Notes: generated by a model from the letters alone, not told the origin. A stretch of DNA of 64,000 nucleotides from Planctomycetota bacterium (GCA_030748635.1 JASMLP010000001.1:13986-77985); one strand, 5' to 3'. Positions 6,029-21,830 are shown, counted from the first letter of the stretch. A program made the numbers and translations.

Positions 6029-6625
6029 ATGAAACCACTCACTATCCTCACGGCGATTCTTCTCGCCTTCTCCTCCACCGCGTTCTCCCAAGATGCGCTC
6101 AAGGAGATCGACAACCCACTCCAGGATGCCCGCGAAGGGGACACCGTCGAATACTCGATCGAGAGCGTCCTGCTCGACAGCCCGGTCGGAAAGAACGAGA
6201 AACGGACCAACACATCCTCGCTCTCGGTCGTGGAAATCGATCGTCAGCTCGTCAAGCTCGAGGTCAAAAGCGACATCCGAGAAGGCTCGCAGACGATCAG
6301 CTTGACCAGTCGGGGAAGCATCGCCGACCTGCTCACCGGCGCCTACCAAGACGTCAACATCTCATCGAGTTCGGTCACCGAAGAAACCGTCGAATTCGAG
6401 GGGAAGAGCTACGTGTGCAAGGTCATTCACCTCAAGTTCACCGCAAAAACCAAACATATGGGCATGACGGTCCCCGTCAAGGTCGACCAGAAAGTCTGGT
6501 ATTCCAATGAGATCCCGGTCCATGGCCAGTTCAAATCGGTTATCGATATGGAAATGACCATCCTCGGCGACAAGAAGACGCACTTTCAGACCACCACCAC
6601 TCTCAAGTCTTTCACCGAGGGGTAG
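6029..6625 (+). CDS. Small secreted protein (198 aa) of unknown function
   Basis: N-terminal signal peptide MKPLTILTAILLAFSSTAFSQ. Coding-like composition. Followed directly by a perfect hairpin terminator. Confidence 0.6.
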   Translation: MKPLTILTAILLAFSSTAFSQDALKEIDNPLQDAREGDTVEYSIESVLLDSPVGKNEKRTNTSSLSVVEIDRQLVKLEVKSDIREGSQTISLTSRGSIADLLTGAYQDVNISSSSVTEETVEFEGKSYVCKVIHLKFTAKTKHMGMTVPVKVDQKVWYSNEIPVHGQFKSVIDMEMTILGDKKTHFQTTTTLKSFTEG

Positions 6626-6646
6626 TCCGCAAAACGAGTCAAAGCG

Positions 6647-6680
6647 ATGGGCACCGGATCCCGGTGCCCATTTTCTTCAT
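6647..6680 (+). terminator. Rho-independent terminator ATGGGCACCGG-atc-CCGGTGCCCAT followed by TTTTCTTCAT
   Basis: Perfect 11-bp palindrome with a 3-nt loop and a downstream T-rich run, 20 nt after the stop codon of 6029-6625. Confidence 0.7.
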
Positions 6681-6753
6681 CTCAACAACTAAAGACCTTC
6701 ACCCGGATGAAAACCACTCCTGACTCACACGGGTCACCAACCAAGGAGCCCCG

Positions 6754-6918
6754 ATGAAGTACCCAGCCCTACAATCCAAGCGTGCCGGCGCCGGCATGAC
6801 CGAGTACATCATCATCGTCATTCTCATTGCGATCGCTCTTATCGTGGTCGTGACCAATTTTGGTTACCGACTTCAGGATAAAGGCGCCGAAGCCACGATC
6901 GAGGTCCAAAAGCTCTAA
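6754..6918 (+). CDS. Flp/Fap-family (type IVb, Tad-type) prepilin, 54 aa; below the 60-aa cut-off of the supplied ORF track
   Basis: MKYPALQSKRAGAGMTEYIIIVILIAIALIVVVTNFGYRLQDKGAEATIEVQKL contains the Flp processing motif G/AGMTEY (E at +5, Y at +6) followed by a hydrophobic helix. A strong SD (AAGGAG) sits 5 nt upstream of the ATG. Confidence 0.65.
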   Translation: MKYPALQSKRAGAGMTEYIIIVILIAIALIVVVTNFGYRLQDKGAEATIEVQKL

Positions 6919-7002
6919 GAACGGCTTTTACTCGGCTCGCGCTCTCTCCCGATTCATCCCCGATACGGGGACACTCTCGCCAGATAGCAGGTAAATCACA
7001 AC

Positions 7003-8802
7003 ATGAAGCTTCCAAAATCTCTCATTCAACCGTTCCTTCTCACGCTCGCGCTGAGCTTCGGGTGCCTCTTCCCGAACTCGGTCCAAGCTCAACAAGAAGA
7101 AGACAATGCTGAAGAACTCCGAAATCGCCGCCGGGAGCTGCTCAAGAAATTCGAGCGCTCCGACAGCAACTCATTCCGGGAACAGATCTACAAATATCTG
7201 ATCCGAATGCGGCTCAACGACAAGATCCGGGATCGAGCCAATTCGGACTACCTCCCCTCCGCCAGTGAAGTGGACGGATGGTTCGGGTGGGTTCCGGTTT
7301 CGAGCGCACTCGGACTGGGAGGCGCGCTCGCCAATGACGGGGACCTGAATGAGCGAGACATCCAGAAAGTCATCGGCCTCGTAGCCAAAGACGGAATCAC
7401 CCCCGAGGAGAAAGAGGACCTCCTCGACATCTACGACATGTACGGCGACACCATGACCACCGAGTCCCTCGAAGTCATGGAAGAGTTGATCGAAGGCGGT
7501 GACGATGAATCCAAGTACAAGCTGACCTCCAAGAATCCGACCTGGACCTCCACCTACTTCCCGATGGCCGGTAGCGGCATCGACGATGAAGGGGATTCCC
7601 AGGACAACCTCTGGGCCAAAGACGGCGCCATGCACAAGCTCGATAGCGTCATCGAGGAACGCACCGGCACTCGTGGCACCGCCTATGAAACCGAAAGCCG
7701 CCCCGCTCTGAACTGGCTTATCGGCGAGAAAAAGGGCTACTGGGTAGCCAACAGTCGGCTGAGCGAAAAAGACGCTGAACGGACCACCGGAGTCGACCTC
7801 AACCGAAACGGCAAGATCGATCCCGATGTCGAATGGGACTTCATCGATTCACGCGGCAACTTCGGCGAAGACGGCAAGAAGGACGGCACCATGGGCGTCG
7901 GCTGGTGGGGACGTTGCAACAACGTCGGGATCGCCGGCACACTATTCAAAGAGCCGAAGAAAGATGTCACCCTCAACGGCGTCACATTCACCGCGACCGA
8001 GATCAAAGGGCTTTTGTCTGTTTACAGCGACACGATCCTCAACTCCAAAGGCTCCGAATTCGAAGGCAGTCGTTACGACGACCGGCCCGATGAACTCGTC
8101 ACTCGAGACGGGAAACGCCTCTCGGGAGTGATTGAAAATGCTCGCGAACTTGACCTCGACGGCGAGGGCATGAAACGTTCGACCAACTACAGACACGGCG
8201 GAGACTACATCATTCTCGATGGCGACGCCCTGGAAGACCGAGGCAAAGACATTCGCTTCCGCGATCTCGCTACTGGCGAAGTCACCACCTATAAGCCCGA
8301 AGAGGTTCGCAGTGTGGCCAAGGAAGACTCCAAGCAGGACATCGAAGCCCGAGTCTTCCACAACAACATGACCGAATGGCTGGCGGACGGCCGGTCGGGT
8401 GTCCTCGAAATGGACCCGGGCAGCCATGTATGGAACTACAACTTCGAAAGCGCCGACATCCACGAAACCAAAACCCGCCCCCACTGGGCTCCGGAAGACC
8501 GTAAAGATCTACGCGGTTATGACGGCCCTCCGGGAGACGGCGAGATCACCTACGTTGAAGCGAGAATGCGGTATGACGGTGGAGGAAGCTCTCAGACCTA
8601 CCGCTACTGGATCGAGAAGAATCGCAGCGGCACAGTCGTCAACAGCGGCTGGAGCAGTAAGAACCCGGACTTCATGTGGCGAGCCAAGGAATCTGAAGTC
8701 GATTGGAGCCGCAAGGTTCCCGGCCACCCGAGCCTCGATGGTAACATCCTGCGTGAACTCTACGAAAAAAGCACCGCAGAAGATTCCTCCGACAACCAGT
8801 AA
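7003..8802 (+). CDS. Secreted protein of unknown function, paralogue B of the tandem family
   Basis: Signal peptide MKLPKSLIQPFLLTLALSFGCLFPNSVQA and the same conserved blocks as paralogue A. A 47-nt stretch (7794-7840) is identical at the DNA level to 4967-5013. Confidence 0.85.
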   Translation: MKLPKSLIQPFLLTLALSFGCLFPNSVQAQQEEDNAEELRNRRRELLKKFERSDSNSFREQIYKYLIRMRLNDKIRDRANSDYLPSASEVDGWFGWVPVSSALGLGGALANDGDLNERDIQKVIGLVAKDGITPEEKEDLLDIYDMYGDTMTTESLEVMEELIEGGDDESKYKLTSKNPTWTSTYFPMAGSGIDDEGDSQDNLWAKDGAMHKLDSVIEERTGTRGTAYETESRPALNWLIGEKKGYWVANSRLSEKDAERTTGVDLNRNGKIDPDVEWDFIDSRGNFGEDGKKDGTMGVGWWGRCNNVGIAGTLFKEPKKDVTLNGVTFTATEIKGLLSVYSDTILNSKGSEFEGSRYDDRPDELVTRDGKRLSGVIENARELDLDGEGMKRSTNYRHGGDYIILDGDALEDRGKDIRFRDLATGEVTTYKPEEVRSVAKEDSKQDIEARVFHNNMTEWLADGRSGVLEMDPGSHVWNYNFESADIHETKTRPHWAPEDRKDLRGYDGPPGDGEITYVEARMRYDGGGSSQTYRYWIEKNRSGTVVNSGWSSKNPDFMWRAKESEVDWSRKVPGHPSLDGNILRELYEKSTAEDSSDNQ

Positions 8803-8846
8803 CCCTTCCACTCCCGGCCCCCGTCACCTAATCACGAGACAAGATC

Positions 8847-10619
8847 ATGAAACGTAAGCGCCTAACAAGCAGATCCCGGCTCATCACGCTCTCATGCCTC
8901 GCCGCCACTCTCTGGAGCTTCCCGGCTCTGGGGCAAGAGCCGGAACTCGACGCGGCCACCAACGAGGCGTTGCGCGCGGAGAGAGAACGACTTATTGAGC
9001 GTTTCAATGCCACCGATTCTCGTTCCGAACGGCGAGCGATTCTCGAAGAACTCATCAAAATGAAGATGGACGACCGCGATCTGGACGTCGATGGACGGAT
9101 CCCCACCGCAGATGAAATTTCCGACTGGACGGGGACGATCGGGGTTTCCAACGCACTCGGCCTGGGAGCTCGCCTGGCCGACGATGGACGCCTGACTAAC
9201 CGCGACTTCCAGAACATCGCCGCTTTGGTTGCCAAAGACGGGGTTTCCAAGGAGGAGAAAAAAAGTCTCGCGGAACTAGTCGACCTCTACGGCGACACCA
9301 TGGGCAAAAGAACCCGGCGTCAATTCCGGAGCCTGATGCGCGACCGTTCATCCGCCTACACCGTTCGGACGAAGAACAAAACCTGGACTTCCAGCTACTT
9401 CCCGATGGCTGGCTGGAGCGCCAGCGACGAGGGATCTGCAAATCGCAACCTCTGGGCCAAAGACGGGGCCATGGCCAAAGTCGACAAGGTCATCGAGGCG
9501 CGCACCGGAGAGCCGGGAACAGCCCTCGAAACCGAACGTCGTCCCGCACTCAACTGGCTGGTCGACAAACCCACCGGCTATTACGTCCCCAGTTCGACGA
9601 TCCGGGAAAATGACGCGGAACGAACCACCGGAGTCGACTTCAACGGGAACGGTAAAATTGAAGACAACATCGAATGGGATTTCCTCGATTCACGCGGCAA
9701 CTTCGGCGAAGACGGAGAGAAGGACGGCACGATGAGTGTTGGCTGGTGGGGTCGTTGCAACAACGTAGGAATTGCCGGCACGCTGTTCAAAGAGCCCAAG
9801 AAGTCGGTTACCGTCGACGGAGTCACCTTCAGCGCAACCGAAATCAAGGGATTGCTGGCTGTCTACAGCGACACCATCGTCGATGCCAAGGGATCCGAAT
9901 TCCACGGCAACCGTTATGACGACCAACCCGACGTCATCGTAACCAAAGACGGGAAGGTCCACCGGGGAACCATCGAAAACGCTGGAGAACTGGACTTCTA
10001 TACCAACGGGATGTTCCGCCCCGGTCACCCTTCATGGAGTGACTTCACCATCCTCGACGCGAATGAACTCAAGCGTCAAGGCAAGGACATTGAATTCCGA
10101 AACATCGAAACCGGTGAAACCGAAACATTCAAGATTGACGACCTCAACCTCATCGGACGTGAAGACAAAAAACAAGACACCGAACCCATCGTGTTCCACA
10201 ACAACATGACCGAATGGTTGGCTGATGGTCGGGGCGGAGTACTCGAGATGGACCCGGGCAGCCATGTCTGGAACTACAACTTTGAAAGTGCCAACGTTCG
10301 GGAATCCACCCGCCGTCCCCGCTGGGCCCCACGCAAGAAAGAAGACCTCGTCGGATTCAACGGTCCTCCCGGAGAAGGTGAAATCACCTACGTATCAGCA
10401 CGCGTCAAATACAACGGGGGGGGTGGTACCCAAAACTACCGATACTGGATCGAACGAGATGAGGAAGGTAAAGTCCTCAACAGCGGCTGGATGAGCAAAA
10501 ACCCCGACTTCATGTGGCGCGCCAAGGAGACCAAGGTCGACTGGTCACGCGAAGTCCCCGGCCACCCCAGCCTCGACCCCGCGCTCATCAAAGAACTCTA
10601 CGAGAAGAGCACCGACTGA
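8847..10619 (+). CDS. Secreted protein of unknown function, paralogue C of the tandem family
   Basis: Signal peptide, and the same Cys (WWGRCNNVGIAGTLF) and His (GSHVWNYNFESA) blocks. Ca-loop variant DFNGNGKIEDNIEWDF. Confidence 0.85.
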   Translation: MKRKRLTSRSRLITLSCLAATLWSFPALGQEPELDAATNEALRAERERLIERFNATDSRSERRAILEELIKMKMDDRDLDVDGRIPTADEISDWTGTIGVSNALGLGARLADDGRLTNRDFQNIAALVAKDGVSKEEKKSLAELVDLYGDTMGKRTRRQFRSLMRDRSSAYTVRTKNKTWTSSYFPMAGWSASDEGSANRNLWAKDGAMAKVDKVIEARTGEPGTALETERRPALNWLVDKPTGYYVPSSTIRENDAERTTGVDFNGNGKIEDNIEWDFLDSRGNFGEDGEKDGTMSVGWWGRCNNVGIAGTLFKEPKKSVTVDGVTFSATEIKGLLAVYSDTIVDAKGSEFHGNRYDDQPDVIVTKDGKVHRGTIENAGELDFYTNGMFRPGHPSWSDFTILDANELKRQGKDIEFRNIETGETETFKIDDLNLIGREDKKQDTEPIVFHNNMTEWLADGRGGVLEMDPGSHVWNYNFESANVRESTRRPRWAPRKKEDLVGFNGPPGEGEITYVSARVKYNGGGGTQNYRYWIERDEEGKVLNSGWMSKNPDFMWRAKETKVDWSREVPGHPSLDPALIKELYEKSTD

Positions 10620-10850: not shown

Positions 10851-13800
10851 CTACACCCGCTTGAGCACCGTAAGCGTCATGTCGTCATGCTGTTCCGCAT
10901 CCCCAACAAACCCCTCGATATCCTCGAACACCGACTCCACGAGTTCCCCCACATCCTTGGCTACATGACGCTTCAAGCTCTCCTTTAGACGATCGACCTC
11001 GAACATGGCCTCTTCGGAGTTGAGAGCTTCGCTGCATCCGTCGGTATAGAGCAACACCACATCACCTGGACTCAGATCGAGCTGTTTTTCCTGAATCATA
11101 TCGCCCACCTCGTCCTTGATCCCCAAGACGACTCCCCCGGCAGGGATCGCCTCGACAGTTTCGGTTTGAGAACGGTAGACCAGGAGATTTTCATGGCCAG
11201 CACCGGTATAGCAAATCGACTCTCCATCCCAGCGGACCAATAGCATCGACATGAAAACGAACGGTTCTGTATTCGCCTTCAGAATCCGGTTGGCCTCCAG
11301 CAAAACATCCCGGGTCGAAAGGTTCGACTCTGAAAGATGATGGAGCAACACCCGAGCCATCACCATCACCAACCCCGCCGGAACCCCCTTTCCACTGACA
11401 TCACCGATACAACTGAGGAGAGACTTCTGATCTTCTGAGAGGAGAAAGTCGTAGTAGTCGCCTCCGACCTTGCCTGCCGGGACCATCTTCCCATAGACCT
11501 CGAGACCGGCGATCTGAGGAATAACCTTGGGAAGCAGATTGGCTTGAATTCGACTGGCGATATTCAACTCCTGCTCAATCTTTTGCTTTTCCACCAACTC
11601 TTCGTAAAGAAACGCATTTTCCAGAGCGATGGCAACCTGATCGGCGAAGGCGACCAGAAGATCGAGGTCCCGGTCGGTAAACAGATCCTGGATAGATGGA
11701 TTGTCTACATACATCGCGCCGATAGTCTTGCCCTTCAAGGTGAAGGGGACGCAAAGGATACTCTTCAAACGCAAATTGCGAATCGACTCGGCCTGGAATT
11801 CCCCGTCCGCTTGCGCATCCGAGGTAAGCACCGGGTCTCCAGTCCGAATAACCTTGTGGACGATCGAGGTGCTCACCTCGAATTCAGGGTGATCGATCTG
11901 CTCTTTTTCCAGATTCCTCGCCGCCTTGAAAACAAACCCTTCATTTTCATCGCGGAGCATGAGAAAACCGCGCTCCGCGCGAATAACCTCCACCACGAGA
12001 TCCAAGACCATTTGAAACAATCGCTCACTATCTAGTGTGCTATTGATCACCTTGGTTACTTTTTGCAAAGCGAGAAGTCCAGTGCGCTCATCTCTGAGTT
12101 CTTCAACTTCGGCCAAAAGTGACTGATTCTTCCCCTCCAAAGCTTGCAGCTTTTGGGCCAAGGCCTCCTCGGAATCACGAATCCTTCTCTCGACATCCAG
12201 AATGAGTTCTTCAGCATTCATTAGCTTTACCTCGGCACGAATTCCTTCCAAAATATCATTAAAACTATCGGTAACCTCTAACTGAAGAGATCCGATTTCA
12301 TCGGAAAGGGCTCGCGAACGATCAGCCAGATCGAAGCGATGGTAGATCTCTTCTCGAGCCTTGAGAGACTCGCCCAAGAGCATCTGAGCCTTGCCGAGAA
12401 GATGATCTGCGCCCGCATCCTCAAAAATATCCCGGGCCTTTCGAAGATGATTGACCGCACTTTTTAGATATCCCCGATCACCCGCTTTTTCGGTCTCGAG
12501 CAAAAATCCCCCGTAGGCCAGATGAGTCCGTCCTTCCTCGAAGCGAGATCGAGTTCGGCCGAGCAAGACCAAGCTGGCCACGAAATGCTCAACCGCTTCA
12601 AGCCGGTAATTGTTAGCGATGCAAAAGAGTGCGTATTTTCGATACAAGATCCCCTGAAGGTTCTTCAAGTCCAGATCCTTCGATCGATCGAGGGCCTTGT
12701 TCAGAGTTTTGAGAGCCAGGCCGTGATTCCCCAACTTGATCAGAACATCCACGACACCGCTATAGACGGTTCCCAAAAGCCACTTCATCTGAACATCACG
12801 AAGCGTTTTTTCGGCCATAGCAAAAGAGGTCTTGGCCTTGCGATAAAGCCCCTCATCAGCAAACGCTTCACCCAAGTGGATGTAACAGATCCCAACAGCC
12901 CAAGGAACACGTGTGTCCTTGAATGTACGCATCGACTTGACCAGATATTCAACCGCCCTGGAAGCCTGCCCCTTCTTGACCAGGAGACGCCCAAGATTCA
13001 AACCACAGTAGGCTTCCGAAGATTTTCGTCCCATTTCCTGACTGCGCTCGATGGCCTGTTCATAGACCTCCTGAGCTCGGTCCAAGCGTCCATCCCACTC
13101 GAAAATCTGACCGATTCGGGCCTCGATCTCGACCATGTAAACACGGTCTCCAGTGAACTGGGCATGATAAAGCGCGTCCTCGAGAAATTTGTACGTAACC
13201 TCGAGGTCCCCATAGTGAAGATGAACACGCGCGATCCCGGCACTGATCCGTGACCTAAGATACCCCTCCCCTTCGGGGGGCAGTAGATCCAACGCGCGCT
13301 CCAGGTAGTTGATCGAGGTCGAAAACCGTCCCTGGAAAAAGTGGATGTCACCCAGATTTCCATAAATCGAGGCCAACAAGATCTCTCGGCCCGTACCTCG
13401 AACCAGTTCCAACGCCTCTTGAGCATAACGCTCACTCCGTCCGAGTTGACCTCGAGCCAGATAGATCCGTGAAATATGGTTAAGGACATCGGGGCGAACC
13501 TGCTGATCCTTGGACTCTTCCAGGAGACGCTTGAAACAACGCAAGGCTTCGTTGTACTGGTGTTTCCTGAAGTGCGCATAACCTAGGCCCTGAAGCGACT
13601 GATCCCGACTGTTTTCGGTTAGACCCGAACCAGTCAACGCTCGATTGTAAAACCGAATCGCTCGATCAAAATCGCCACCACGATTGTAAAGACTCCCGAG
13701 CTTTCCTTGGATCAATGCTCGACGCTCATCATCGCCAAGAGCCTCCGCGACCTCGATCCCTGTTTCGTAATAAGATGCCGCCCTCTGAGTCAGATAAGCC

Positions 13801-15950
13801 TTACGAAAACGATCGCCCAGATCGATGTACACATCCACAGCTCGATCTGGCCGACGGCTTCCACGATAGTGATGTGCCAGATTTTCAAGTTCAGACTCCT
13901 CCTGCTCGCCTTCTCGCCCCTCGAGATACGTCGCAATTCGATCGTGCAGCTTTTGCAAAGCCCGTCCCTTCGCATCCCAGGGACATAAATCCCTCAGTTG
14001 GGGAAAGACAGATCGATACTGAAGTCCTTCTGGCATCGAAATGGATTCGCACAGTTCAGCGCTCTCCAGATTTCCCAGAACAACTTTTGCCTGCGATTCT
14101 TTCAAACGTGTGATCTTCATGAGAAGGCCCAGATCACAGAGCGATCCGACCAGCGCCAAAGCCGACAACATCAACCGATCTTTCTTCTCCAGTTCCAACA
14201 CCCTATCTGGCAGTGAATTTTCGGAACGCAGAGGGCGCCTGATCTTCCGGACATCATCGACTTCGATCTGCCATTCACCACCCCGACGATAGATAAGTCC
14301 GTCCTCGGCAAGCCCATACATCGTTTCTTCGGCCAGAGCCGGATTCCCATCGGACAGTTCGGAAATCGCTTCGGGCAAGAACCCTGTGATCTCCTTCTGG
14401 TAAATCATGGATCCCAGAAAACTTCTCAAATCCTCTTGGCTCAACGGACCGATGTCGATTTCTTCCAGTATTCCCAGCGCTCTCCATTTCGGCAGAAACA
14501 ACTCGACTGGATGCTCTTTTCCTCCCCGAGGAAGTGGCCACGTACTCGAGGCCAGGAGCAATACCGGCCGATCAACCACCGCCTCTACCAGTTGCAAAAG
14601 AGTGTCGAAGTCCTCCTCCCCAAGCCGATCCAGATCATCGAGCAGGAGAACCACTGGCTGAGATTCAGAGAGGTAGGAGAAAAGACCCACCAGTTCGTGC
14701 GCCAAACGCTCCGGCGAAATATCTCCCTCTGGGCAAATACCTGACATCCAGGACCGCCGCCCCAATTCCGGCAGAAAATGAACCAGAGTTCCTCCCCATC
14801 GAGACGCGATTTCCGGCATCTGGTCCGGATTAGCCTGTTCGACATGAAGCAAACATTCCTGCGCCAAAATCACCAGCGACTCGAAAGGAGCCTCATGATG
14901 CTCAGAGCAGGAAACATGGGCAAGAATGACCGGCTCAGCGACCCACTCACCTCGGACCTCTTCCAGAATCCGAGTTTTCCCTACTCCGGTAACTCCCCGA
15001 ACCAGAACTCCTCGACAAGCCCCGCGTCGACACGAGACAAACGACTCTCGAATTTTGGCAAGAAGTGATTCACGACCCACAAAGCGGGGTCGATAGAGAT
15101 ACCGAGCCCCTTTTTCCGTACGGATGGCTGCGATTTCCGATCGTCCCGAAAGCTGTACCAGGTCCATCAGAAGTTCTTGTGCCGTCTGGTATCGATCTGC
15201 CGGGTCTTTCTCCAGGCAACGCAGGAGAATGCTCTCAAATCCTGGTGTCACATCCCGGTTGTACTTGGAGGGGGCAACCGCCTTGCTCTCGAGTTGCTTC
15301 ATCACAGCAGCCATCAGATCCCTGGATGTAAACGGCAGGCGCCCGGTGGCCAACTGATAAAACGTGACGCCGATACTGTAGATATCCGCTCGAGGATCGA
15401 CATCGAAACCCTTGATCAACTCGGGAGCCATGTATTCGATCGATCCCGCGATGTTGCTCTCACTGTCGTGAATCGATCGAGCCAAGTCGTGGGTCAAAGC
15501 GAAACCAAAATCCATCAACTTCACCGTCCCATCCGGAGTCACCCGGATATTCGCCGGCTTGAGGTCCCGATGAATGATTCCCTCGCAGTGGAAGTAATCG
15601 AGAGTTCGACAGATATCAGTCGCGATATCGATTACCCGCGGAATTCCTTCCTCGCCCAACTCTTCGTCCAGCCCTTTCCCGGGAACATACTCCATCGTGA
15701 AGTAGTTGCTGCCAAAATCGTACACCTTCACAATCCCTGGATGATCCAGTCGCGAAAGAGCCTCGAATTCCTCTCGAAGCCTCTGGAGATCTTTCTCTCG
15801 CTGAAGATCTTCTCGCAGCAACTTCAGGGCAATAGACTCCCCTTTCTGGCGATCGTGCACCAGATAGACAGTCCCCATTCCTCCCTCACCGAGAGTCCTT
15901 AATATTTCGTAACGGTCTTCGATAATCTGGCTTCGAGTCGATGTAGACAC
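10851..15950 (-). CDS. Giant multidomain signalling protein: N-terminal Ser/Thr protein kinase, then AAA/NB-ARC-like P-loop ATPase, TPR array, coiled coil, GAF domain and a C-terminal PP2C (SpoIIE-type) phosphatase
   Basis: Kinase motifs GEGGMGTVY, HRDLKPANI, DFG and APE. P-loop GVTGVGKT. Multiple TPR-like helices. A GAF-like region. The C-terminus carries the PP2C/SpoIIE metal-binding blocks GDVSGKGVPAG and YTDGCSEA. Confidence 0.85.
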   Translation of the reverse strand: MSTSTRSQIIEDRYEILRTLGEGGMGTVYLVHDRQKGESIALKLLREDLQREKDLQRLREEFEALSRLDHPGIVKVYDFGSNYFTMEYVPGKGLDEELGEEGIPRVIDIATDICRTLDYFHCEGIIHRDLKPANIRVTPDGTVKLMDFGFALTHDLARSIHDSESNIAGSIEYMAPELIKGFDVDPRADIYSIGVTFYQLATGRLPFTSRDLMAAVMKQLESKAVAPSKYNRDVTPGFESILLRCLEKDPADRYQTAQELLMDLVQLSGRSEIAAIRTEKGARYLYRPRFVGRESLLAKIRESFVSCRRGACRGVLVRGVTGVGKTRILEEVRGEWVAEPVILAHVSCSEHHEAPFESLVILAQECLLHVEQANPDQMPEIASRWGGTLVHFLPELGRRSWMSGICPEGDISPERLAHELVGLFSYLSESQPVVLLLDDLDRLGEEDFDTLLQLVEAVVDRPVLLLASSTWPLPRGGKEHPVELFLPKWRALGILEEIDIGPLSQEDLRSFLGSMIYQKEITGFLPEAISELSDGNPALAEETMYGLAEDGLIYRRGGEWQIEVDDVRKIRRPLRSENSLPDRVLELEKKDRLMLSALALVGSLCDLGLLMKITRLKESQAKVVLGNLESAELCESISMPEGLQYRSVFPQLRDLCPWDAKGRALQKLHDRIATYLEGREGEQEESELENLAHHYRGSRRPDRAVDVYIDLGDRFRKAYLTQRAASYYETGIEVAEALGDDERRALIQGKLGSLYNRGGDFDRAIRFYNRALTGSGLTENSRDQSLQGLGYAHFRKHQYNEALRCFKRLLEESKDQQVRPDVLNHISRIYLARGQLGRSERYAQEALELVRGTGREILLASIYGNLGDIHFFQGRFSTSINYLERALDLLPPEGEGYLRSRISAGIARVHLHYGDLEVTYKFLEDALYHAQFTGDRVYMVEIEARIGQIFEWDGRLDRAQEVYEQAIERSQEMGRKSSEAYCGLNLGRLLVKKGQASRAVEYLVKSMRTFKDTRVPWAVGICYIHLGEAFADEGLYRKAKTSFAMAEKTLRDVQMKWLLGTVYSGVVDVLIKLGNHGLALKTLNKALDRSKDLDLKNLQGILYRKYALFCIANNYRLEAVEHFVASLVLLGRTRSRFEEGRTHLAYGGFLLETEKAGDRGYLKSAVNHLRKARDIFEDAGADHLLGKAQMLLGESLKAREEIYHRFDLADRSRALSDEIGSLQLEVTDSFNDILEGIRAEVKLMNAEELILDVERRIRDSEEALAQKLQALEGKNQSLLAEVEELRDERTGLLALQKVTKVINSTLDSERLFQMVLDLVVEVIRAERGFLMLRDENEGFVFKAARNLEKEQIDHPEFEVSTSIVHKVIRTGDPVLTSDAQADGEFQAESIRNLRLKSILCVPFTLKGKTIGAMYVDNPSIQDLFTDRDLDLLVAFADQVAIALENAFLYEELVEKQKIEQELNIASRIQANLLPKVIPQIAGLEVYGKMVPAGKVGGDYYDFLLSEDQKSLLSCIGDVSGKGVPAGLVMVMARVLLHHLSESNLSTRDVLLEANRILKANTEPFVFMSMLLVRWDGESICYTGAGHENLLVYRSQTETVEAIPAGGVVLGIKDEVGDMIQEKQLDLSPGDVVLLYTDGCSEALNSEEAMFEVDRLKESLKRHVAKDVGELVESVFEDIEGFVGDAEQHDDMTLTVLKRV

Positions 15951-16106
15951 AGACGCCTCACCCAGACGGGCGGTCTTCCGGAAGTCCTAAAACAGCAAAG
16001 ATTTAGCAAGTCAATATAAAGCCGCATCGCCAGGCATGCAAATGCCGGAATTAGAGACCTCTTCTATCACCCCCCTTTCTGGCCTGTTCGAACCGCTTTC
16101 CCTACA

Positions 16107-16880
16107 ATGATTTTCCACACCATGATTCATATCGATCCACAGGCGAACCTCATCGAAATTTTCTCCGGAATTCAGGGAGAAGGCCTCCTCATCGGAGAGC
16201 GAATGGTCTTTGTGCGATTTACCGCCTGCAATCTCACGTGTGATTACTGTGACACCCCGATGGGACGCCCACTGGACACGGTCGTCCAAATCGAAAAGAC
16301 TCCGGGGCGTCGCGACTTTTCGACCCGGACGAACCCTCTAAAAGTCGCCGAAGTGACTCAATCCATCCGACAACTGACGCGATCAGCCGGACTCCATCGC
16401 TGGGTGACTCTGACCGGAGGAGAACCTCTCCTCTACCCGAAATTCCTCGAAGCCTTGATCCCCCATATCCAAGCCGCCGGCCTTCAGATCCAGCTCGAAA
16501 CCAACGGACATTTTCCTAAACGCCTGGAATCTGTAGGCCCAAACATCGATCTCATTGCTATGGATATCAAGGAGAAGTGCGACGGAGGTCAGCTCGAAAC
16601 CTCTCTCCGTTTCCTGGAAGTCGCCAAACTCAGCAGCCGGGTCTACCTGAAAATGGTTGTGCGACCGTCGCCAGATATTGCTCATTTTGTCCAAACAGCC
16701 CGATCCGTATCCCAAATCGACCCCAACATCCCGCTCGTACTCATGCCGGTCACCCCGTTTGGACCGATCCACTCGCCCCCAACTCCCCAGGAAATTCTCC
16801 ACCTCCAAGAACGCTTGCTTCAAGAGCATCGAGAAGTTCGAGTCATTCCTCAAACCCATAAGATCACGGGACAACTCTGA
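16107..16880 (+). CDS. queE: 7-carboxy-7-deazaguanine synthase-like radical SAM enzyme (QueE family)
   Basis: EIFSGIQGEGLLIGERMVFVRFTACNLTCDYCDT matches the QueE N-terminal block and its unusual Cx3Cx2C-type cluster motif. Size is about 250 aa. Confidence 0.7.
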   Translation: MIFHTMIHIDPQANLIEIFSGIQGEGLLIGERMVFVRFTACNLTCDYCDTPMGRPLDTVVQIEKTPGRRDFSTRTNPLKVAEVTQSIRQLTRSAGLHRWVTLTGGEPLLYPKFLEALIPHIQAAGLQIQLETNGHFPKRLESVGPNIDLIAMDIKEKCDGGQLETSLRFLEVAKLSSRVYLKMVVRPSPDIAHFVQTARSVSQIDPNIPLVLMPVTPFGPIHSPPTPQEILHLQERLLQEHREVRVIPQTHKITGQL

Positions 16881-16882
16881 CA

Positions 16883-17644
16883 GTGTCGATTTCGGTCGAA
16901 AAGCTCTACAAGGTGTTCCAAGATCCCCAACAACCCGAAGTGGCCGCGGTGGACCGAATCGAATTTCAGGTACGAGCGGGCGAAATTTTCGGCCTACTTG
17001 GCCCCAACGGAGCGGGCAAAACCACCACCCTTCGAATGCTGGCCACCCTGCTGCGCCCGACCAGCGGTTCCGCTTCCATTGCCGGACACGACCTTTGGAA
17101 AAACCCTTCTCACGTTCGAAGATCGATCGGTTACCTTTCCGCCGATTCTGGGGTCTACGACCGCTTGACTCCACGCGAAATCGTCGAACATTTCGGTCAG
17201 CTTTACGGCCTCTCTCGCAGCCAGGTACGAGACCGAACCGAAGAACTGTTCGAACATTTCTCTATGGGTGCTCATAGCGATCGATTGTGCATGCATCTTT
17301 CCTCCGGCATTCGGCAGAAAGTATCGATCATTCGATCCCTCGTTCACTCTCCCCCTGTCCTCCTGCTGGACGAACCGACTCGATCACTCGACATTCTAGT
17401 CGCTCGAACTGTAACGGACTTTATCCGACAAGCACGTCAACGTGGGTCCTGTATCCTGCTCTCCACCCACGACATGAACGAAGCTTCATCGTTGTGTGAT
17501 TCTTTTGCCATCCTTCACCGTGGACGGATCCTAGCCCAAGGCGCCACTCACGAGTTAGAAACCCGTTTCGGCGGAAAAAGCCTGGAACAGCTTTTTTTCC
17601 ACACAATCGAACACGATCGAGGCGTTCCGCGTGTTTCGAAATAG
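16883..17644 (+). CDS. ABC transporter ATP-binding protein (ABC-2/NatA type), GTG start
   Basis: Walker A GPNGAGKTTT, the ABC signature LSSGIRQK, and Walker B LLLDEP. Confidence 0.85.
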   Translation: MSISVEKLYKVFQDPQQPEVAAVDRIEFQVRAGEIFGLLGPNGAGKTTTLRMLATLLRPTSGSASIAGHDLWKNPSHVRRSIGYLSADSGVYDRLTPREIVEHFGQLYGLSRSQVRDRTEELFEHFSMGAHSDRLCMHLSSGIRQKVSIIRSLVHSPPVLLLDEPTRSLDILVARTVTDFIRQARQRGSCILLSTHDMNEASSLCDSFAILHRGRILAQGATHELETRFGGKSLEQLFFHTIEHDRGVPRVSK

Positions 17645-19745
17645 TTGGATCGTATTCCGGAGGGAACTGCTGGAAACCGTCCGCGACCGCCGGACTCTCT
17701 TCGTGATGTTCATCTTACCGGTTGTTCTCTACCCCCTACTCCTGCTCGGTCTGAGCCAAATCCTCGTTCACCAAAAACTGTCCATAAAAAAAACGACCAC
17801 CTCCATCGCTCTCAGCGGAGCTCCAGAAGATCTCGCGATCCACCTACAAACTCAATCCAGAGGACACTCCTTCCAGACACTGGACATCCCCAATCCTCGC
17901 CAGGCACTCGCGGAAGGAACCGTCAGTATCTGGATCTCATGGCAAGAAGGCGACGATCCCCCCCCCCAGTTGACCATCCATTACAGCGGAACCCGCGAAG
18001 ACTCTCGATTGGCCCAAAAACAAGTCGTTTCCCTTGTCAAAGAGTATCGACGCCAGAAAGTCGTCCACCGACTTCAAAATGAGCTAGGGACAGACGAGAG
18101 CTTATTGAGACCGTTTCAGATCGCTCGACAGAACATCGAGTCGAGCGAGCGCCAGGCAGGATTCATGCTGGGAAGAGTGCTCTCCTTGCTCCTGGTTCTC
18201 ATGTCCGTATTCTTTCCCTTCTACCCTGCCATCGACAGTGCCGCAGGAGAGAAGGAGCGAGGAACCCTCGAAACACTCCTCGTCTCCCCGGTGAAACGAA
18301 GGGAAATCGTCACCGGGAAATACGCTTCAATCTTTACCATTGCCATGGTCGGTAGCCTACTCAACCTTGCGAGTATGGGATTAACGTTCACGCACTTCAC
18401 CCACCTCGTGAATGTGATGAAGCAAGAGGCCCAGAACTCCGCCATTCTCGAATCCTCTCCCGACCCCACGACCTCGTCTGAAAAAACGACTCCGGTCGAA
18501 GATGGAATTGTAGAAGAGTACATGCAGATCAGGCTCGACTTGACACCGGCGATTTTGCTCCAGATCCTCCTCATCCTCACCCCTTTATGTGGACTCCTGT
18601 CAGCGGTCAGCCTTGCACTCTCCACGTACGCAAGAAGCTACAAGGAAGCTCAATACTACCTAACCCCACTCTCTCTGGCTGTCTTGCCGCTTGCCTTGAT
18701 CGGACTCATTCCGGGCGCTGAACTCGATGGATTCAATGCCCTCATTCCGATCACCGGGCCGGTACTTCTCTTTCAGTCTTTATTCCTGGGAAGTGCGCCT
18801 CCTCTTTTCTTCGGACTTGTTCTTGGCAGTACGATCTTCTACGGAGCCCTTTCCCTGCATATCACTCGAAAACTGTTCGAGGATGAAGAGATCCTCTTCA
18901 GAGAGGGAACGCTCTGGACCTGGCGGTTCTGGCAGTACAGTCCCCATCGAGGAAAAGCTCCCGGCCCCTCCCAAGCTTTACTACTTCTGGGCATGGCGTT
19001 TCTTTCGCTCTGGTATGTAGGCCAACCCTTGCAACTTCACCATCTCGCCTGGGGAATCGCCTTCAGCCAAATCGTACTGTTTCTCGGCGGAACCCTCGCC
19101 ATATGTCACCTCTATCGGTTCCCCATCAAAAAAACCCTTTCCTTGTACCGCCCACGAGCCATCCATCTGCTGGGGAGCCTACTTCTGGGCATCGGAGGCT
19201 TTCTCATCGGCCGTCAAGTCCTCCATGGACAGATCCTCCTCTTTCCCCAGATGCCCGAAATGATGCATCAAATGGGGAGTGATTTTTCCATTTTATTCGA
19301 ACAAGTCCCCCCGTTCGGTGTTCTGATCCTGCTCACGATTGTGCCCGCAATCTGCGAAGAAACCGTCTTTCGTGGTTTCATCCTGAATTCTTTGGTCGAT
19401 AAAAACCGTCGACCCCTCGCCGCCCTTTTTCTCTCCGCAGCGACCTTCGCTTTCTTACACCTCTCTCTGATCCGATTCCCCTTTACTTTCACTCTGGGAG
19501 TGTTTTTGGGACTTGGCGTCCTCCTTTCCGGAAGCCTCTATGTCGGTATCGTGGCCCACTTCATATCCAACGTCCTGGCCCTGGCTTCCCCACACCTTCC
19601 CATCGACTCACTCGACAATCCCAATCTCTCCTTGCCTACCTGGCTTCTTTTCCTCGCGGTGATTTTGATTCTCGTCTCCACGTTCCTTTTGAAAAGCGAC
19701 AAACGCCCGGACCCAACCGACCCGTCTTGCCCGAAGCTTACCTGA
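17631..19745 (+). CDS. Fusion of an ABC-2 family permease with a C-terminal CPBP (CAAX protease/Abi) intramembrane glutamic endopeptidase domain; GTG start overlapping the ATPase gene by 14 nt
   Basis: The N-terminal half is polytopic, with the ABC-2 permease pattern (EKERGTLETLLVSP). The C-terminal half carries all three CPBP motifs: EETVFRG, FAFLH and HFISN. Confidence 0.75.
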   Translation: MFRNSWIVFRRELLETVRDRRTLFVMFILPVVLYPLLLLGLSQILVHQKLSIKKTTTSIALSGAPEDLAIHLQTQSRGHSFQTLDIPNPRQALAEGTVSIWISWQEGDDPPPQLTIHYSGTREDSRLAQKQVVSLVKEYRRQKVVHRLQNELGTDESLLRPFQIARQNIESSERQAGFMLGRVLSLLLVLMSVFFPFYPAIDSAAGEKERGTLETLLVSPVKRREIVTGKYASIFTIAMVGSLLNLASMGLTFTHFTHLVNVMKQEAQNSAILESSPDPTTSSEKTTPVEDGIVEEYMQIRLDLTPAILLQILLILTPLCGLLSAVSLALSTYARSYKEAQYYLTPLSLAVLPLALIGLIPGAELDGFNALIPITGPVLLFQSLFLGSAPPLFFGLVLGSTIFYGALSLHITRKLFEDEEILFREGTLWTWRFWQYSPHRGKAPGPSQALLLLGMAFLSLWYVGQPLQLHHLAWGIAFSQIVLFLGGTLAICHLYRFPIKKTLSLYRPRAIHLLGSLLLGIGGFLIGRQVLHGQILLFPQMPEMMHQMGSDFSILFEQVPPFGVLILLTIVPAICEETVFRGFILNSLVDKNRRPLAALFLSAATFAFLHLSLIRFPFTFTLGVFLGLGVLLSGSLYVGIVAHFISNVLALASPHLPIDSLDNPNLSLPTWLLFLAVILILVSTFLLKSDKRPDPTDPSCPKLT

Positions 19746-20035
19746 GGAATCGAGCAGAACTCCCACGAGGACCCGGCCCCAACAAAAGCGTAAGAATATA
19801 AATAGAAACAACTTACGGATATTCGAGACTAAAAACCAGCTCGTCTGCACCCCATTTTCTGGACCCGACCCCTCGCCATGAATTCCGAAACGGATCGCTA
19901 CAGAGAACCCACCCGGCTCCGCCTCCGCCCCCGCGCCCGAGTCCAGAGGCTCCGCCGAGAGTGTCGGCACCTGGATCCAACCTCGAATTGAAAGCTTCCG
20001 AATCGCGGGTTTATCGACGCAAGTCTTTGATGTGC

Positions 20036-20065
20036 TTGACAGAATCGATTCTCCGGTGCTACGAT
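20036..20065 (+). promoter_or_regulatory. Sigma-70-like promoter TTGACA-N18-TACGAT
   Basis: A consensus -35 hexamer and a near-consensus -10 hexamer lie about 35 bp upstream of the 20100 start codon. Confidence 0.45.
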
Positions 20066-20099
20066 CCCGCCTTTTATCGATCCAGCCGAGGGAATTTAG

Positions 20100-21830
20100 A
20101 TGCAACAGCGGCTCAGCGCACTGCTCATCGCGCTTTCGACCGTCCTGGTAACCGTCTGCTCTGCCGACGAAAGCTTCATTACGCCCAAGGAATTGAAGCG
20201 TGGAGACCGGGGATACGGTCTTTCGGTTTTCGAAGGAACCCGGATCGAAAAATTTGACGTTGAAGTCATCGATGTAATCGAAAAGTCACTTCCTTCTCAG
20301 GACATGGTTCTGATCAGAATCTCTCGACACGGAGAGGGATTTGATGTGGCTCGCTCCGGCGTCATCGCCGGCATGAGTGGCAGTCCGATCTACATCCGAG
20401 GGAGATTGCTCGGCGCACTAGCTTACGGCTGGGGATTCCAGAAAGGATCCACCGCGGGAGTCACTCCCATTTCCAACATGATCGCGGATATGAATCGACC
20501 TCTGGAAAAAGCGTCCGGTACTCCCAGGCCCATTCACTGGGGTGAATCCTCCATTCGCCCTTGCGTCACCCCGATTCTGATATCCGGAGCGTCGCCTCAC
20601 ACGCTCTCCCAATTTCGAAAACAGTTCGAACAGCACGGATTCTTGCCTGTTCTCGGCGGTGGCAATGCGGCAAAACCCAACGCAAACGACAAACGAGTTC
20701 GTCTCGAACCAGGGTCGGCCATCGGCGTAAATTTAATGACTGGCGACATGTCCTTCACAGCCATTGGAACCGTCACTCACGTCGACAAGGTCTCCGGAAA
20801 AGTCCTCGCCTTTGGTCATCCCTTCTTCCAGGCGGGACCGGTACAACTCCCGATGACAACAGCCCGAGTCCACACTGTCATCGAGAGCCTCTCTTCTTCG
20901 TTCAAGCTTGGAAGCAGCATCCAGAGCGTTGGCACCCTGATCGCCGACCGGCAAGCTTCGATCGTTGGCCAGGTCGGAGAATCGCCCAAAATGATTCCGA
21001 TCGAGTTCACCGTTCGCAACCAGATGACCCAGGCCAAAAATACGTACCGCTGCCAGGTGGTAGATCATCATTTATGGACCTCCATCCTGATCAACATGGC
21101 TCTGAGCAATTTCGCCAATGCTGCCGACCCGTCTTTTGGCCCGAACACCAAGACGGTTCGGATGAGTTTACGTTTTCGAGGACATGAGCCTATCGAGTTC
21201 CAGGACACCTTCTCGGGCAGCCTATCCACCTTCTCCTCCAGGCTCCTCTCTCCCCTTTCCGCCCTGCTCAACAATCCTTTCAAACGAGTTCACCTGGAAG
21301 GAGCGGAGGTCAGCATGGAACTGGCCCACGAAAACCGAGCGGCGCAAATCACCTCCATCCTTCTTCAGGATCGTGAAGTAGAAGATGGCCAGACCGTTTA
21401 CTTTCGAGTGGTCCTGGAGGGCTATGACCGGAAACCCTATGTCGCGAAGATGTCGGTTCCCATCCCCCGTAATCTCCCCCCGGGTCGCTACACACTCCAA
21501 GTCTCCGGTGGTCACCAGAGTTCTCCCAATCTCCCTCGCCCACGATCCATCGAAGATCTCGTGCGATTGATTCATTCCGTGGGTAAAGGACAACAAATTG
21601 TCGCCTCCCTAAAAATCCCAAAAATGACTCTTTATCACCAAAGCAAACCGTTCAAAGATCTGCCTCCGTCCGTGCTAGGAACCTTACTCGCCTCCAACCG
21701 ATCCGCCGATCTCCAGATTCAAACAGATCAGGTTGTCCGAACCATTGACACGCCGCTGGTCGTTTCCGGTCGAGCATCCATCACCCTCGATGTCCGAGAA
21801 AGTACACATCAACATGCAACTCCTCGCTAA
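20100..21830 (+). CDS. Secreted protein with a serine-hydrolase-like GMSGSPIY motif (possibly a peptidase S55/SpoIVB-related fold); function uncertain
   Basis: Signal peptide MQQRLSALLIALSTVLVTVCSA. The GMSGSP motif resembles the S55/S7-type nucleophile elbow, but the motif order relative to His/Asp could not be confirmed. Confidence 0.4.
   Translation: MQQRLSALLIALSTVLVTVCSADESFITPKELKRGDRGYGLSVFEGTRIEKFDVEVIDVIEKSLPSQDMVLIRISRHGEGFDVARSGVIAGMSGSPIYIRGRLLGALAYGWGFQKGSTAGVTPISNMIADMNRPLEKASGTPRPIHWGESSIRPCVTPILISGASPHTLSQFRKQFEQHGFLPVLGGGNAAKPNANDKRVRLEPGSAIGVNLMTGDMSFTAIGTVTHVDKVSGKVLAFGHPFFQAGPVQLPMTTARVHTVIESLSSSFKLGSSIQSVGTLIADRQASIVGQVGESPKMIPIEFTVRNQMTQAKNTYRCQVVDHHLWTSILINMALSNFANAADPSFGPNTKTVRMSLRFRGHEPIEFQDTFSGSLSTFSSRLLSPLSALLNNPFKRVHLEGAEVSMELAHENRAAQITSILLQDREVEDGQTVYFRVVLEGYDRKPYVAKMSVPIPRNLPPGRYTLQVSGGHQSSPNLPRPRSIEDLVRLIHSVGKGQQIVASLKIPKMTLYHQSKPFKDLPPSVLGTLLASNRSADLQIQTDQVVRTIDTPLVVSGRASITLDVRESTHQHATPR

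Follow-up and report, generated by a model that had tools for sequence, protein, structure and literature searches.

A QueE-type radical SAM gene beside an ABC-2 permease::CPBP protease unit in a Planctomycetota bacterium: most likely a lineage-specific arrangement of functionally unrelated genes

A closely packed three-gene block

An ORF map of a 64 kb stretch of Planctomycetota DNA (here called the window) places three co-directional, closely packed genes at positions 16107-19745. The first, queE (16107-16880, plus strand), starts with ATG and encodes a 257-aa QueE-type radical SAM enzyme, 7-carboxy-7-deazaguanine synthase. Its stop codon, TGA at 16878-16880, is followed by the dinucleotide CA and then by the GTG start codon, at 16883, of a gene for a 253-aa DrrA/NatA-like ABC ATP-binding subunit (16883-17644, plus strand), leaving a gap of 2 nt. 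The third gene (17631-19745, plus strand) encodes a 704-aa fusion of an ABC-2 permease with a CPBP intramembrane protease; it also begins with GTG, at 17631, and overlaps by 14 nt the end of the ATPase gene, whose stop codon TAG lies at 17642-17644. The layout given in the first-pass annotation, with its 2-nt spacing, GTG-initiated ATPase, 14-nt overlap and 704-aa fusion, is borne out at each point by reading the sequence.

Where does the unit begin and end? A divergent intergenic region (15951-16106) separates queE from the gene for a 1699-aa Ser/Thr kinase on the minus strand, and presumably contains the promoter of the three genes; consensus promoter matches in this region are not above shuffled expectation. 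The fusion gene is followed by a gap of 354 nt (19746-20099), in which the unit probably ends. The next gene (20100-21830) gives a weak SpoIVB-peptidase-like match and is preceded by a promoter-like site at 20036-20065. Promoter- and terminator-like sites around the unit are no more frequent than in shuffled sequence, so the putative operon boundaries are drawn from gene spacing, from which we also infer that queE and the two downstream genes are co-transcribed.

The window is unremarkable in G+C content, and housekeeping genes (uvrB, purB, lepA, fmt, rsmB, ligA, coaX) surround the block; its horizontal acquisition was rejected on these grounds. A search with Rfam found no riboswitch, for preQ1 or otherwise, in the whole 64 kb. 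PADLOC identified no defence system and returned only generic similarities for the radical SAM protein (pVip) and the ABC ATPase, with nothing for the fusion; an anti-phage role was dropped for this reason.

A divergent QueE and a transporter-protease fusion

Is the product of the first gene a genuine QueE? Pfam recognises Radical_SAM (E = 1e-10) and Fer4_12 domains, and the top NCBIfam matches are all QueE models. All five fall under their cut-offs, the best of them, TIGR03963, reaching 69.6 bits against an equivalog cut-off of 260.1. The top three PDB matches are the QueE structures 4NJG, 5TGS and 6NHL, with E-values of only 1e-8 to 1e-6, and the best PHROG match is 'QueE-like'. A public protein 100% identical to the window protein carries the name QueE at NCBI; in the public annotation, translation begins at M6 (nt 16122), giving 252 aa. 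A truncated MqnC/MqnE was considered as an alternative identity and rejected, since the protein has no CofH_C domain and carries the QGEG/FxR motif of QueE.

The residues expected of a QueE are in place. In the E. coli enzyme, Q13, E15 and R27 bind CPH4, C31, C35 and C38 hold the iron-sulphur cluster, and T40 is a ligand of Mg (PMC11142719). The substrate residues align with Q23, E25 and R37 of the window protein. The cluster cysteines align with C41, C45 and C48, which form the CX3CX2C motif of the [4Fe-4S]/SAM cluster; this motif and the Mg site that follows it, D49-T50, are encoded at 16227-16250 on the plus strand, and T50 is aligned with T40. T103-GGEP matches the SAM-site residues of the E. 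coli enzyme. Across 47 homologues these positions vary little or not at all, the three cysteines being strictly invariant. The protein thus retains all the residues that were checked for the substrate, cluster, Mg and SAM sites of QueE, and from its sequence it looks like an ordinary CDG synthase.

The scores of the window QueE fall well short of all the QueE equivalog cut-offs in NCBIfam, and it is therefore assigned to a separate subfamily that is not covered by existing QueE models. Members are found in Planctomycetota, Armatimonadota, Geobacterales, some Firmicutes and phages; to our knowledge, none has been characterised biochemically. All current curated QueE models miss the subfamily, and pipelines relying on them would therefore under-call it.

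The first-pass annotation had pointed out that queE is not accompanied by queC, queD or folE. This holds throughout the window, where a domain scan of ORFs of at least 150 aa detected no QueC, PTPS/QueD, GTP cyclohydrolase I, TGT, QueA or QueF domain. In many bacteria queE is not clustered with the rest of the que genes. Scattered queE genes are normal in this phylum too: for two further QueEs from Planctomycetota the next gene is der, encoding a GTPase, and there are no que genes nearby. Other relatives keep the expected company. A bacterial homologue 41% identical to the window QueE overlaps an upstream PTPS/QueD gene, and on a phage contig a QueE of 48% identity is placed after QueC-like and DpdA/TGT-like genes. 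The phage protein falls with the window QueE in one clade of a neighbour-joining (NJ) tree.

It is conceivable, albeit unlikely, that the window protein is a QueE-like paralogue acting on a different substrate, which was recruited to the ABC/CPBP system within one subclade. The low equivalog scores and the modest E-values to solved structures would suit such a paralogue. However, the contact residues for CPH4, Mg, cluster and SAM have all been kept, and members of the same clade and family occur in QueC/DpdA and QueD contexts. Moreover, great sequence divergence among QueE orthologues is known not to prevent them from replacing one another in function (PMC11142719).

The second gene product is an ABC ATPase. 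It matches Pfam ABC_tran (E = 1e-30) and the drrA subfamily model TIGR01188 (250 bits), and its translation contains Walker A (GPNGAGKT), signature (LSSG), Walker B (LLLDEP) and H-loop (STHD) motifs. Sub-threshold NCBIfam matches include ATPase models for lantibiotic protection and daunorubicin resistance.

The 704-aa protein belongs to a family that already has a name. It scores 577.6 bits (cut-off 435, E = 4e-173) against NF041647, 'ABC transporter permease subunit/CPBP intramembrane protease', the match spanning residues 2-652 of the protein and model positions 2-632 out of 636. Pfam finds ABC2_membrane_2/3 (E = 5e-20 and 5e-18) and Rce1-like CPBP (E = 2e-17) domains. Together with alignments and an AlphaFold model of the whole fusion (pLDDT 88.8), these delimit a permease domain of the type V exporter fold at aa 1-422 (17631-18896, plus strand) and, with NF041647 as a further guide, an Rce1-like glutamic intramembrane protease domain at aa 446-688 (18966-19694, plus strand). 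Six TM helices are modelled for the permease, the first two of them separated by a beta-rich extracytoplasmic domain (aa ~57-168), and about eight for the CPBP part. The closest PDB folds (ABCH-9C, NosY, ABCA7 and PmtCD) are all weak matches, with Foldseek E >= 0.01, which is in part an effect of the multidomain query. Homologues are labelled 'sodium transport system permease' by JGI.

The CPBP domain was described in the first-pass annotation as complete, and so it appears: EETVFRG (aa 576-582), FAFLH (aa 606-610) and HFISN (aa 643-647) are present in the translation, corresponding to the EExxxR, FxxxH and HxxxN motifs at nt 19356-19376, 19446-19460 and 19557-19571, and the catalytic residues are intact. 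E576, E577, R581, H610, H643 and N647 are invariant in an alignment of 76 family members, and in the permease domain the motif D202-x2-AGEKERGT is likewise invariant. The GTG start is backed by invariant R18 and D19, both of which would probably be lost with the later start of the 679-aa public gene call (P0121). NCBIfam also gives weak matches, all far below cut-off, to MroQ and two CTERM-sorting proteases, MrtS and MrtJ. The literature searched contained no experimental study of the ABC-2::CPBP fusion family.

Distribution of the two parts and of their linkage

Fusions of the NF041647 type are widespread, with more than 1290 matching protein clusters and at least 580 species genomes from many phyla. 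A homologous ATPase is encoded directly upstream in 76 of 80 other representative genomes, and a QueE lies within 6 kb of the pair in none of the 80 (tblastn and a QueE-clade HMM). The ATPase and the fusion thus form an autonomous, widespread unit that has no universal third partner. Its surroundings vary with lineage and include mqn (menaquinone) genes, trmD, and glmS/M42-peptidase genes, among others. In other Planctomycetota, a radical SAM gene of the MqnC/MqnE type precedes the same ABC pair.

How far is the linkage with queE conserved? The queE-ABC-CPBP block was found in three lineages: that of the window, with two further copies 92-100% identical to it, and those of loci L001/L002 and L101. 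The QueEs of these lineages are 39-52% identical, and the flanks of the block show no other match to the window flanks. The linked QueEs form one clade of the NJ tree, which was computed without support values. In three sister lineages (L093, L095 and the MAG GCA_016209595.1) the block is absent; there, the gene after QueE is a different one, non-ABC and with a weak GT87 match, and a separate contig carries the ABC/CPBP pair. A scan of metagenomes with the window QueE yielded only two loci, one of which is a 92% identical copy from the same organism. The linkage is therefore restricted to one small Planctomycetota subclade, within which it has been kept in three divergent lineages and lost from three sister lineages.

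The retention of a gene block despite turnover of its flanks is usually read as selection for co-expression. As the block has outlasted the rearrangements around it, its parts may be connected in function or regulation.

Interpretation and comparison with known systems

The reading we prefer, with a probability of about 70%, is that a short operon joins two functionally independent things, a genuine QueE and an ABC/CPBP machine, as a block inherited from the ancestor of the subclade and with no shared pathway. Most likely, then, this is an ordinary lineage-specific arrangement of functionally unrelated genes and not a new pathway. QueE would convert 6-carboxy-5,6,7,8-tetrahydropterin to 7-carboxy-7-deazaguanine, toward preQ0 and queuosine in tRNA. 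The other two genes would specify a self-contained membrane machine, probably containing a dimer of each subunit, in which a NatA/DrrA-like ATPase drives a type V (ABC-2) permease bearing a C-terminal CPBP protease that is predicted to be active. ATP hydrolysis may move a membrane-embedded or envelope peptide, or a lipid-linked substrate, which the attached protease would either cleave or be kept away from. The adjacency of queE to this machine would have arisen once, in the ancestor of the subclade, and been passed on as a co-transcribed unit; we infer that there is no functional coupling between the two parts. Both parts are of known kinds, since the fusion falls within a family that has a name and the radical SAM protein is an orthodox, though divergent, QueE. 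The first-pass annotation had offered coincidental adjacency as its fallback, and this fits best, except that the adjacency is not confined to one genome and is kept by three divergent lineages while their flanks differ.

Could selection nevertheless be holding the block together? Because it survives in three lineages with such divergent QueEs and otherwise unrelated flanks, cooperation between QueE and the ABC/CPBP machine can be proposed, with QueE as a moonlighting regulator or partner, or the machine as a pump for a 7-deazapurine-derived product; the chances of this appear slim. A regulatory version has a precedent. E. coli QueE is a proven moonlighter, being induced by PhoQ/PhoP under antimicrobial-peptide stress and blocking division independently of catalysis (PMC11142719). 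By analogy, QueE and the ABC/CPBP proteins might be co-expressed in one stress response, or QueE might bind or modulate the membrane complex, and the conservation of the block in one subclade despite flank turnover would be in keeping with this. However, the E. coli function maps to an enterobacteria-specific region, and the orthologues of P. aeruginosa and B. subtilis do not have this function (PMC11142719); the linkage has also been lost in the sister lineages, and such coupling is improbable here.

The first-pass annotation proposed the export of, or self-protection against, a modified nucleobase or peptide product, and this is not supported. In its small-molecule form, the QueE-like enzyme would make a 7-deazapurine or a related radical SAM product that the ABC/CPBP machine exports or protects against. 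The close and overlapping spacing of the genes and the survival of the block among unrelated flanks speak for it, but it is very unlikely. There are no queD, folE or queC genes in the window to supply the substrate or process CDG, and no DpdA gene nearby. The ABC/CPBP pair does without QueE in all 80 of the other genomes, its other-lineage copies sit in unrelated housekeeping operons, and the genes are separated in the sister lineages. Furthermore, the canonical CPH4-binding residues are retained, and QueEs of the same clade work within ordinary preQ0 clusters. A permease fused to a protease suggests that the substrate is a peptide or protein rather than a nucleobase, and PADLOC defence hits are absent.

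Least probable of all is a RiPP- or bacteriocin-type cluster, in which the radical SAM protein modifies a peptide, the CPBP protease matures it and the ABC transporter exports it or confers immunity. CPBP proteins do include bacteriocin-immunity and peptide-maturation enzymes, and this idea can draw on those roles, on the weak matches to MroQ, MrtS and MrtJ and on the lantibiotic-protection and daunorubicin-resistance hits of the ATPase; yet within its 257 aa the radical SAM protein has only Radical_SAM and Fer4_12, with no SPASM, twitch or RiPP-recognition domain (RRE) by Pfam and NCBIfam, its signature is the QueE substrate motif, no precursor-like gene was found in the 64 kb window nor any credible small precursor ORF in the 156-nt upstream and 354-nt downstream gaps, and the block lies among housekeeping genes, as the pair does elsewhere beside mqn, trmD and glmS.

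An operon that combines a divergent, orthodox QueE with one representative of a known transporter-protease family carries little weight as it stands. The fusion family itself, found in many phyla and hundreds of species and apparently unstudied, is of broader interest, as an ATP-driven type V exporter joined to an intramembrane glutamic protease would be a mechanistically interesting machine. If the lineage-specific linkage were functional, it would provide a second example of a QueE role beyond queuosine synthesis.

How do the parts compare with known systems? The window protein is ~20-30% identical to the QueEs of Burkholderia multivorans (4NJG), B. subtilis (5TGS) and E. coli (6NHL). It shares with them the N-terminal substrate motif E-x-F-x3-QGEG ... 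F-x-R, the CDT Mg site, the TGGEP and ETNG motifs and a size of ~250 aa, and it has the CX3CX2C cluster in common with the enzymes from B. subtilis and E. coli. Its gene is putatively co-operonic with an ABC transporter instead of with que genes. Phage and bacterial Dpd-type 7-deazaguanine DNA-modification clusters contain a relative, in the phage QueC-like/DpdA-like/QueE cluster, but combine DpdA with preQ0 genes, whereas the scanned ORFs of the window have no TGT or QueC domain and the window lacks further dpd genes as well as any features of a phage or island.

Among exporters, the ATPase is most similar to the DrrA/NatA subfamily. As in NatAB/DrrAB-type ABC-2 (type V) exporters, with which the fold neighbours ABCH-9C, NosFY, ABCA and PmtCD are counted here, the permease has six TM helices and a large extracytoplasmic domain after TM1; it differs from them in having a whole intramembrane protease fused on. 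The protease in turn has the EExxxR, FxxxH and HxxxN motifs and the bundle of about eight helices of the CPBP/Rce1 family, although none of the characterised proteases (Rce1, MroQ, myxosortase and other Mrt CTERM-sorting proteases, bacteriocin 'Abi' immunity proteins) is joined to an ABC permease. The closest counterparts are the other members of NF041647, which have the same two-domain architecture, invariant motifs and upstream partner ATPase. What sets the window's clade apart from them is an additional stretch, acidic and rich in Ser/Thr (aa ~253-300), inserted in an extracytoplasmic loop, and it is only in this Planctomycetota subclade that queE stands in front of the unit.

The three-gene block and its surroundings

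Three co-directional genes are found on the plus strand in the ORF map and translations: queE (16107-16880; ATG start, 257 aa), an ABC ATPase gene (16883-17644; GTG start, 253 aa), and a gene in which an ABC-2 permease is fused to a CPBP (Rce1-like) intramembrane protease (17631-19745; GTG start, 704 aa). Read directly from the DNA, the queE stop codon TGA (16878-16880) is followed by 'CA' and then by the GTG of the ATPase gene, and the GTG of the fusion gene lies 14 nt ahead of the ATPase gene end. The coordinates, GTG start of the ATPase, 2-nt spacing, 14-nt overlap, and 704-aa length described in the first-pass annotation are all borne out, as is its remark that queE is not accompanied by queC, queD, or folE; neither these genes nor DpdA were found among the ORFs scanned in the 64-kb window. 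On the 5' side, a divergent gap of 156 nt separates queE from a minus-strand gene (10851-15950) for a 1699-aa signalling protein with Ser/Thr kinase, AAA_16 STAND-type ATPase, TPR array, GAF, and SpoIIE/PP2C phosphatase domains, and 354 nt separate the fusion gene from the next gene on its 3' side. The base composition of the block is no different from the remainder of the window.

Elsewhere in the window, three plus-strand genes close together (4133-5989 and the adjacent pair 7003-8802 and 8847-10619) encode paralogues some 600 aa long, all of which match TGase_elicitor (transglutaminase-elicitor) weakly. Two adjacent minus-strand genes (35814-37283 and 37293-39044) encode unusually long signal peptidase I (S26) paralogues of 489 and 583 aa, in which only the N-terminal 120-150 residues or so fit the family profile. 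A 399-aa ABC ATPase domain protein with C-terminal TPR repeats is encoded at 41108-42307 on the minus strand; its neighbour at 40017-41096 has no Pfam match.

Identity of the radical SAM gene

Is the first gene of the block a true QueE? Its Pfam domains are Radical_SAM and Fer4_12 only, with no SPASM or twitch domain. The top NCBIfam matches are all QueE models, but at 50-70 bits they fall below cut-offs of 200-300, and thus the curated models do not cover this subfamily. An identical (100%) public protein from a Planctomycetota MAG carries the name QueE, and hundreds of homologues at 37-53% identity occur in many phyla. The top three solved-structure matches are the QueE structures 4NJG, 5TGS, and 6NHL. 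In the structure-match alignments, Q23, E25, and R37 align with Q13, E15, and R27 of E. coli QueE, which bind the substrate; C41, C45, and C48 align with the cluster residues C31, C35, and C38; and T50 aligns with the Mg ligand T40 (PMC11142719). T103-GGEP spans the GGE-type SAM motif, and the substrate, cluster, Mg, and SAM positions are invariant or nearly so among 47 homologues.

Genomic context within the family supports the same function. At one locus, a 41% identical homologue overlaps the PTPS/QueD gene upstream of it (L010), and on a phage contig, L003, a 48% identical homologue is found directly 3' of QueC-like and DpdA/TGT-like genes. Judged from its sequence and from the context of its relatives, the first gene is a QueE. 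Planctomycetota queE genes may well lie away from the rest of the que set: in two others the gene is followed by der, encoding a GTPase. E. coli queE, too, stands apart from queC. As a by-product, the recognition of a QueE subfamily missed by curated models may be useful.

The ABC/CPBP pair and its partners

With the NCBIfam model NF041647, 'ABC transporter permease subunit/CPBP intramembrane protease', whose cut-off is 435 bits, the fusion protein scores 577.6; Pfam assigns it ABC2_membrane_2/3 and Rce1-like domains. The first-pass description of an ABC-2 permease joined to a complete CPBP protease holds: in an alignment of 76 members the CPBP residues E576, E577, R581, H610, H643, and N647, which belong to the motifs quoted in that annotation, are invariant, as is the permease motif D202-x2-AGEKERGT. 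R18 and D19 are also invariant, in support of initiation at the GTG codon. From this alignment AlphaFold gives a confident model (pLDDT 88.8, pTM 0.85) with an elbow helix at the N-terminus, six TM helices in the permease with a beta-rich extracytoplasmic domain after TM1 (aa ~57-168), a flexible linker (~423-445), and a CPBP bundle of eight helices; a hydropathy scan agrees with the helix positions. Foldseek matches in the PDB are weak (E >= 0.01) and are all type V ABC exporters (ABCH-9C, NosY, ABCA7, and PmtCD). The ATPase is closest to the DrrA/NatA subfamily, and its Walker A, signature, Walker B, and H-loop motifs are intact.

Two variations are seen among the fusion and its relatives. 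In the window protein and its closest relatives (P0122, P0123, P0124, and P0131), the loop that follows TM3 contains an insertion (aa ~253-305) that is acidic and rich in Ser, Thr, and Pro; it is specific to this clade and absent from the remainder of the family. In the model the insertion is of low confidence, with a poorly ordered stretch at ~275-305. Some relatives of 950-1070 aa (P0126, P0127, P0156, and P0180) have WD40/beta-propeller Pfam matches besides ABC-2 and CPBP, which points to variants bearing an additional propeller domain, probably an extracytoplasmic one.

When the family alignment was scanned against one genome per species, the fusion was found in at least 580 genomes, from Planctomycetota, Bacillota, Gemmatimonadota, Acidobacteriota, Cloacimonadota, Zixibacteria, Myxococcota, and other phyla. 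In 76 of the best 80 loci, the fusion gene has its cognate ATPase immediately upstream, and clustering of the neighbours of these 80 revealed no universal third partner. Contexts are instead lineage-specific: Lachnospiraceae have trmD upstream, Cloacimonadota have an M42 peptidase and glmS nearby, and other Bacillota have either a second CPBP gene or a GH25 lysozyme. A CofH_C-type radical SAM (MqnC/E-like) and an MqnA/D-like gene are upstream, and an amidohydrolase is downstream, in at least seven Planctomycetota. The pair is therefore a self-contained unit, often appended to unrelated housekeeping operons, and is a known, autonomous module. This widespread exporter-protease fusion family is apparently unstudied, and its description may be useful.

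The CofH_C-linked loci form a set of their own (L020:2995-9508, L063, L066, L077, L079, L086, and L088), in which the pair is directly 3' of the radical SAM gene on the same strand. An MqnA/D-like (VitK2_biosynth) gene is further upstream in five of them. Seven loci, only partly the same as these and with Kuenenia among them, have the amidohydrolase 3' of the pair. These neighbours place the pair in an apparent futalosine-pathway menaquinone operon, and a link between the pump-protease pair and quinone biosynthesis may exist.

Reach and meaning of the queE linkage

How far does the linkage extend? Besides the window organism, including copies at 100% (L011) and 92% (L096) identity, the block is found at L001/L002 (QueE 52%, ATPase 54%, fusion 39% identical; 4-nt overlap between queE and the ATPase gene) and at L101 (39%, 48%, and 33-37%; 45-nt gap). 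By tblastx, the three genes are the sole matches to the window in L001 and L101, whose flanks match no part of the 64 kb. The fusion loci that come next in similarity lack the block: upstream of the pair is a giant gene in L093 (fusion 37% identical) and a BatA/VWA gene on the other strand in L095 (36%), and in MAG GCA_016209595.1 a 52%-identical QueE precedes a non-ABC gene with a weak GT87 match, while the ABC/CPBP pair (fusion 41%) is on another contig. Outside the Planctomycetota subclade that carries the block, tblastn and a QueE-clade HMM found no QueE beside the pair, with 0/80 of the best fusion loci having one within 6 kb. In a neighbour-joining tree without support values, linked QueEs, the unlinked QueEs of block-less relatives, and the phage QueE fall in one clade, that of the window protein. 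The simplest reading is a single origin in the ancestor of a Planctomycetota subclade, followed by vertical inheritance and loss in some descendants.

The phage-like contig L003 carries a row of QueC-like, DpdA/TGT-like, QueE, and PAPS-reductase-like genes (6342-9970), as well as terminase, DUF932, and PD-(D/E)XK matches. Together with the place of its QueE in the window protein's clade, this gene content suggests a 7-deazaguanine DNA-modifying phage that exchanged queE with the window's Planctomycetota group.

An operon of convenience is the favoured explanation: an ordinary queE would share its promoter with the ABC/CPBP membrane machine, itself autonomous. That the two are truly tied, by regulation or by moonlighting, is unlikely but keeps a small share of the probability, because the block has survived extensive rearrangement with QueEs 39-52% identical, a pattern that usually points to selection for co-expression. 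E. coli QueE, which acts in the antimicrobial-peptide stress response, offers a precedent, although its moonlighting maps to an enterobacteria-specific region (PMC11142719). The first-pass annotation had proposed that a modified nucleobase or peptide product could be exported or guarded against, or else that the adjacency is coincidental. It is mainly the latter that survives; the former is unsupported, since queC, queD, folE, and DpdA genes in the window, a riboswitch, a defence-system signature, a SPASM/twitch domain, a precursor ORF in the 156-nt and 354-nt flanking gaps, and linkage outside the subclade were all looked for and are missing. Metabolite export by the ABC/CPBP machine, a RiPP role for the block, and a non-CDG substrate for the first gene would each be less probable still than a moonlighting tie.

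The observation itself is thus confirmed and its interpretation partly supported, and the components of the block belong to known kinds: a QueE, and an NF041647 fusion with its ATPase.
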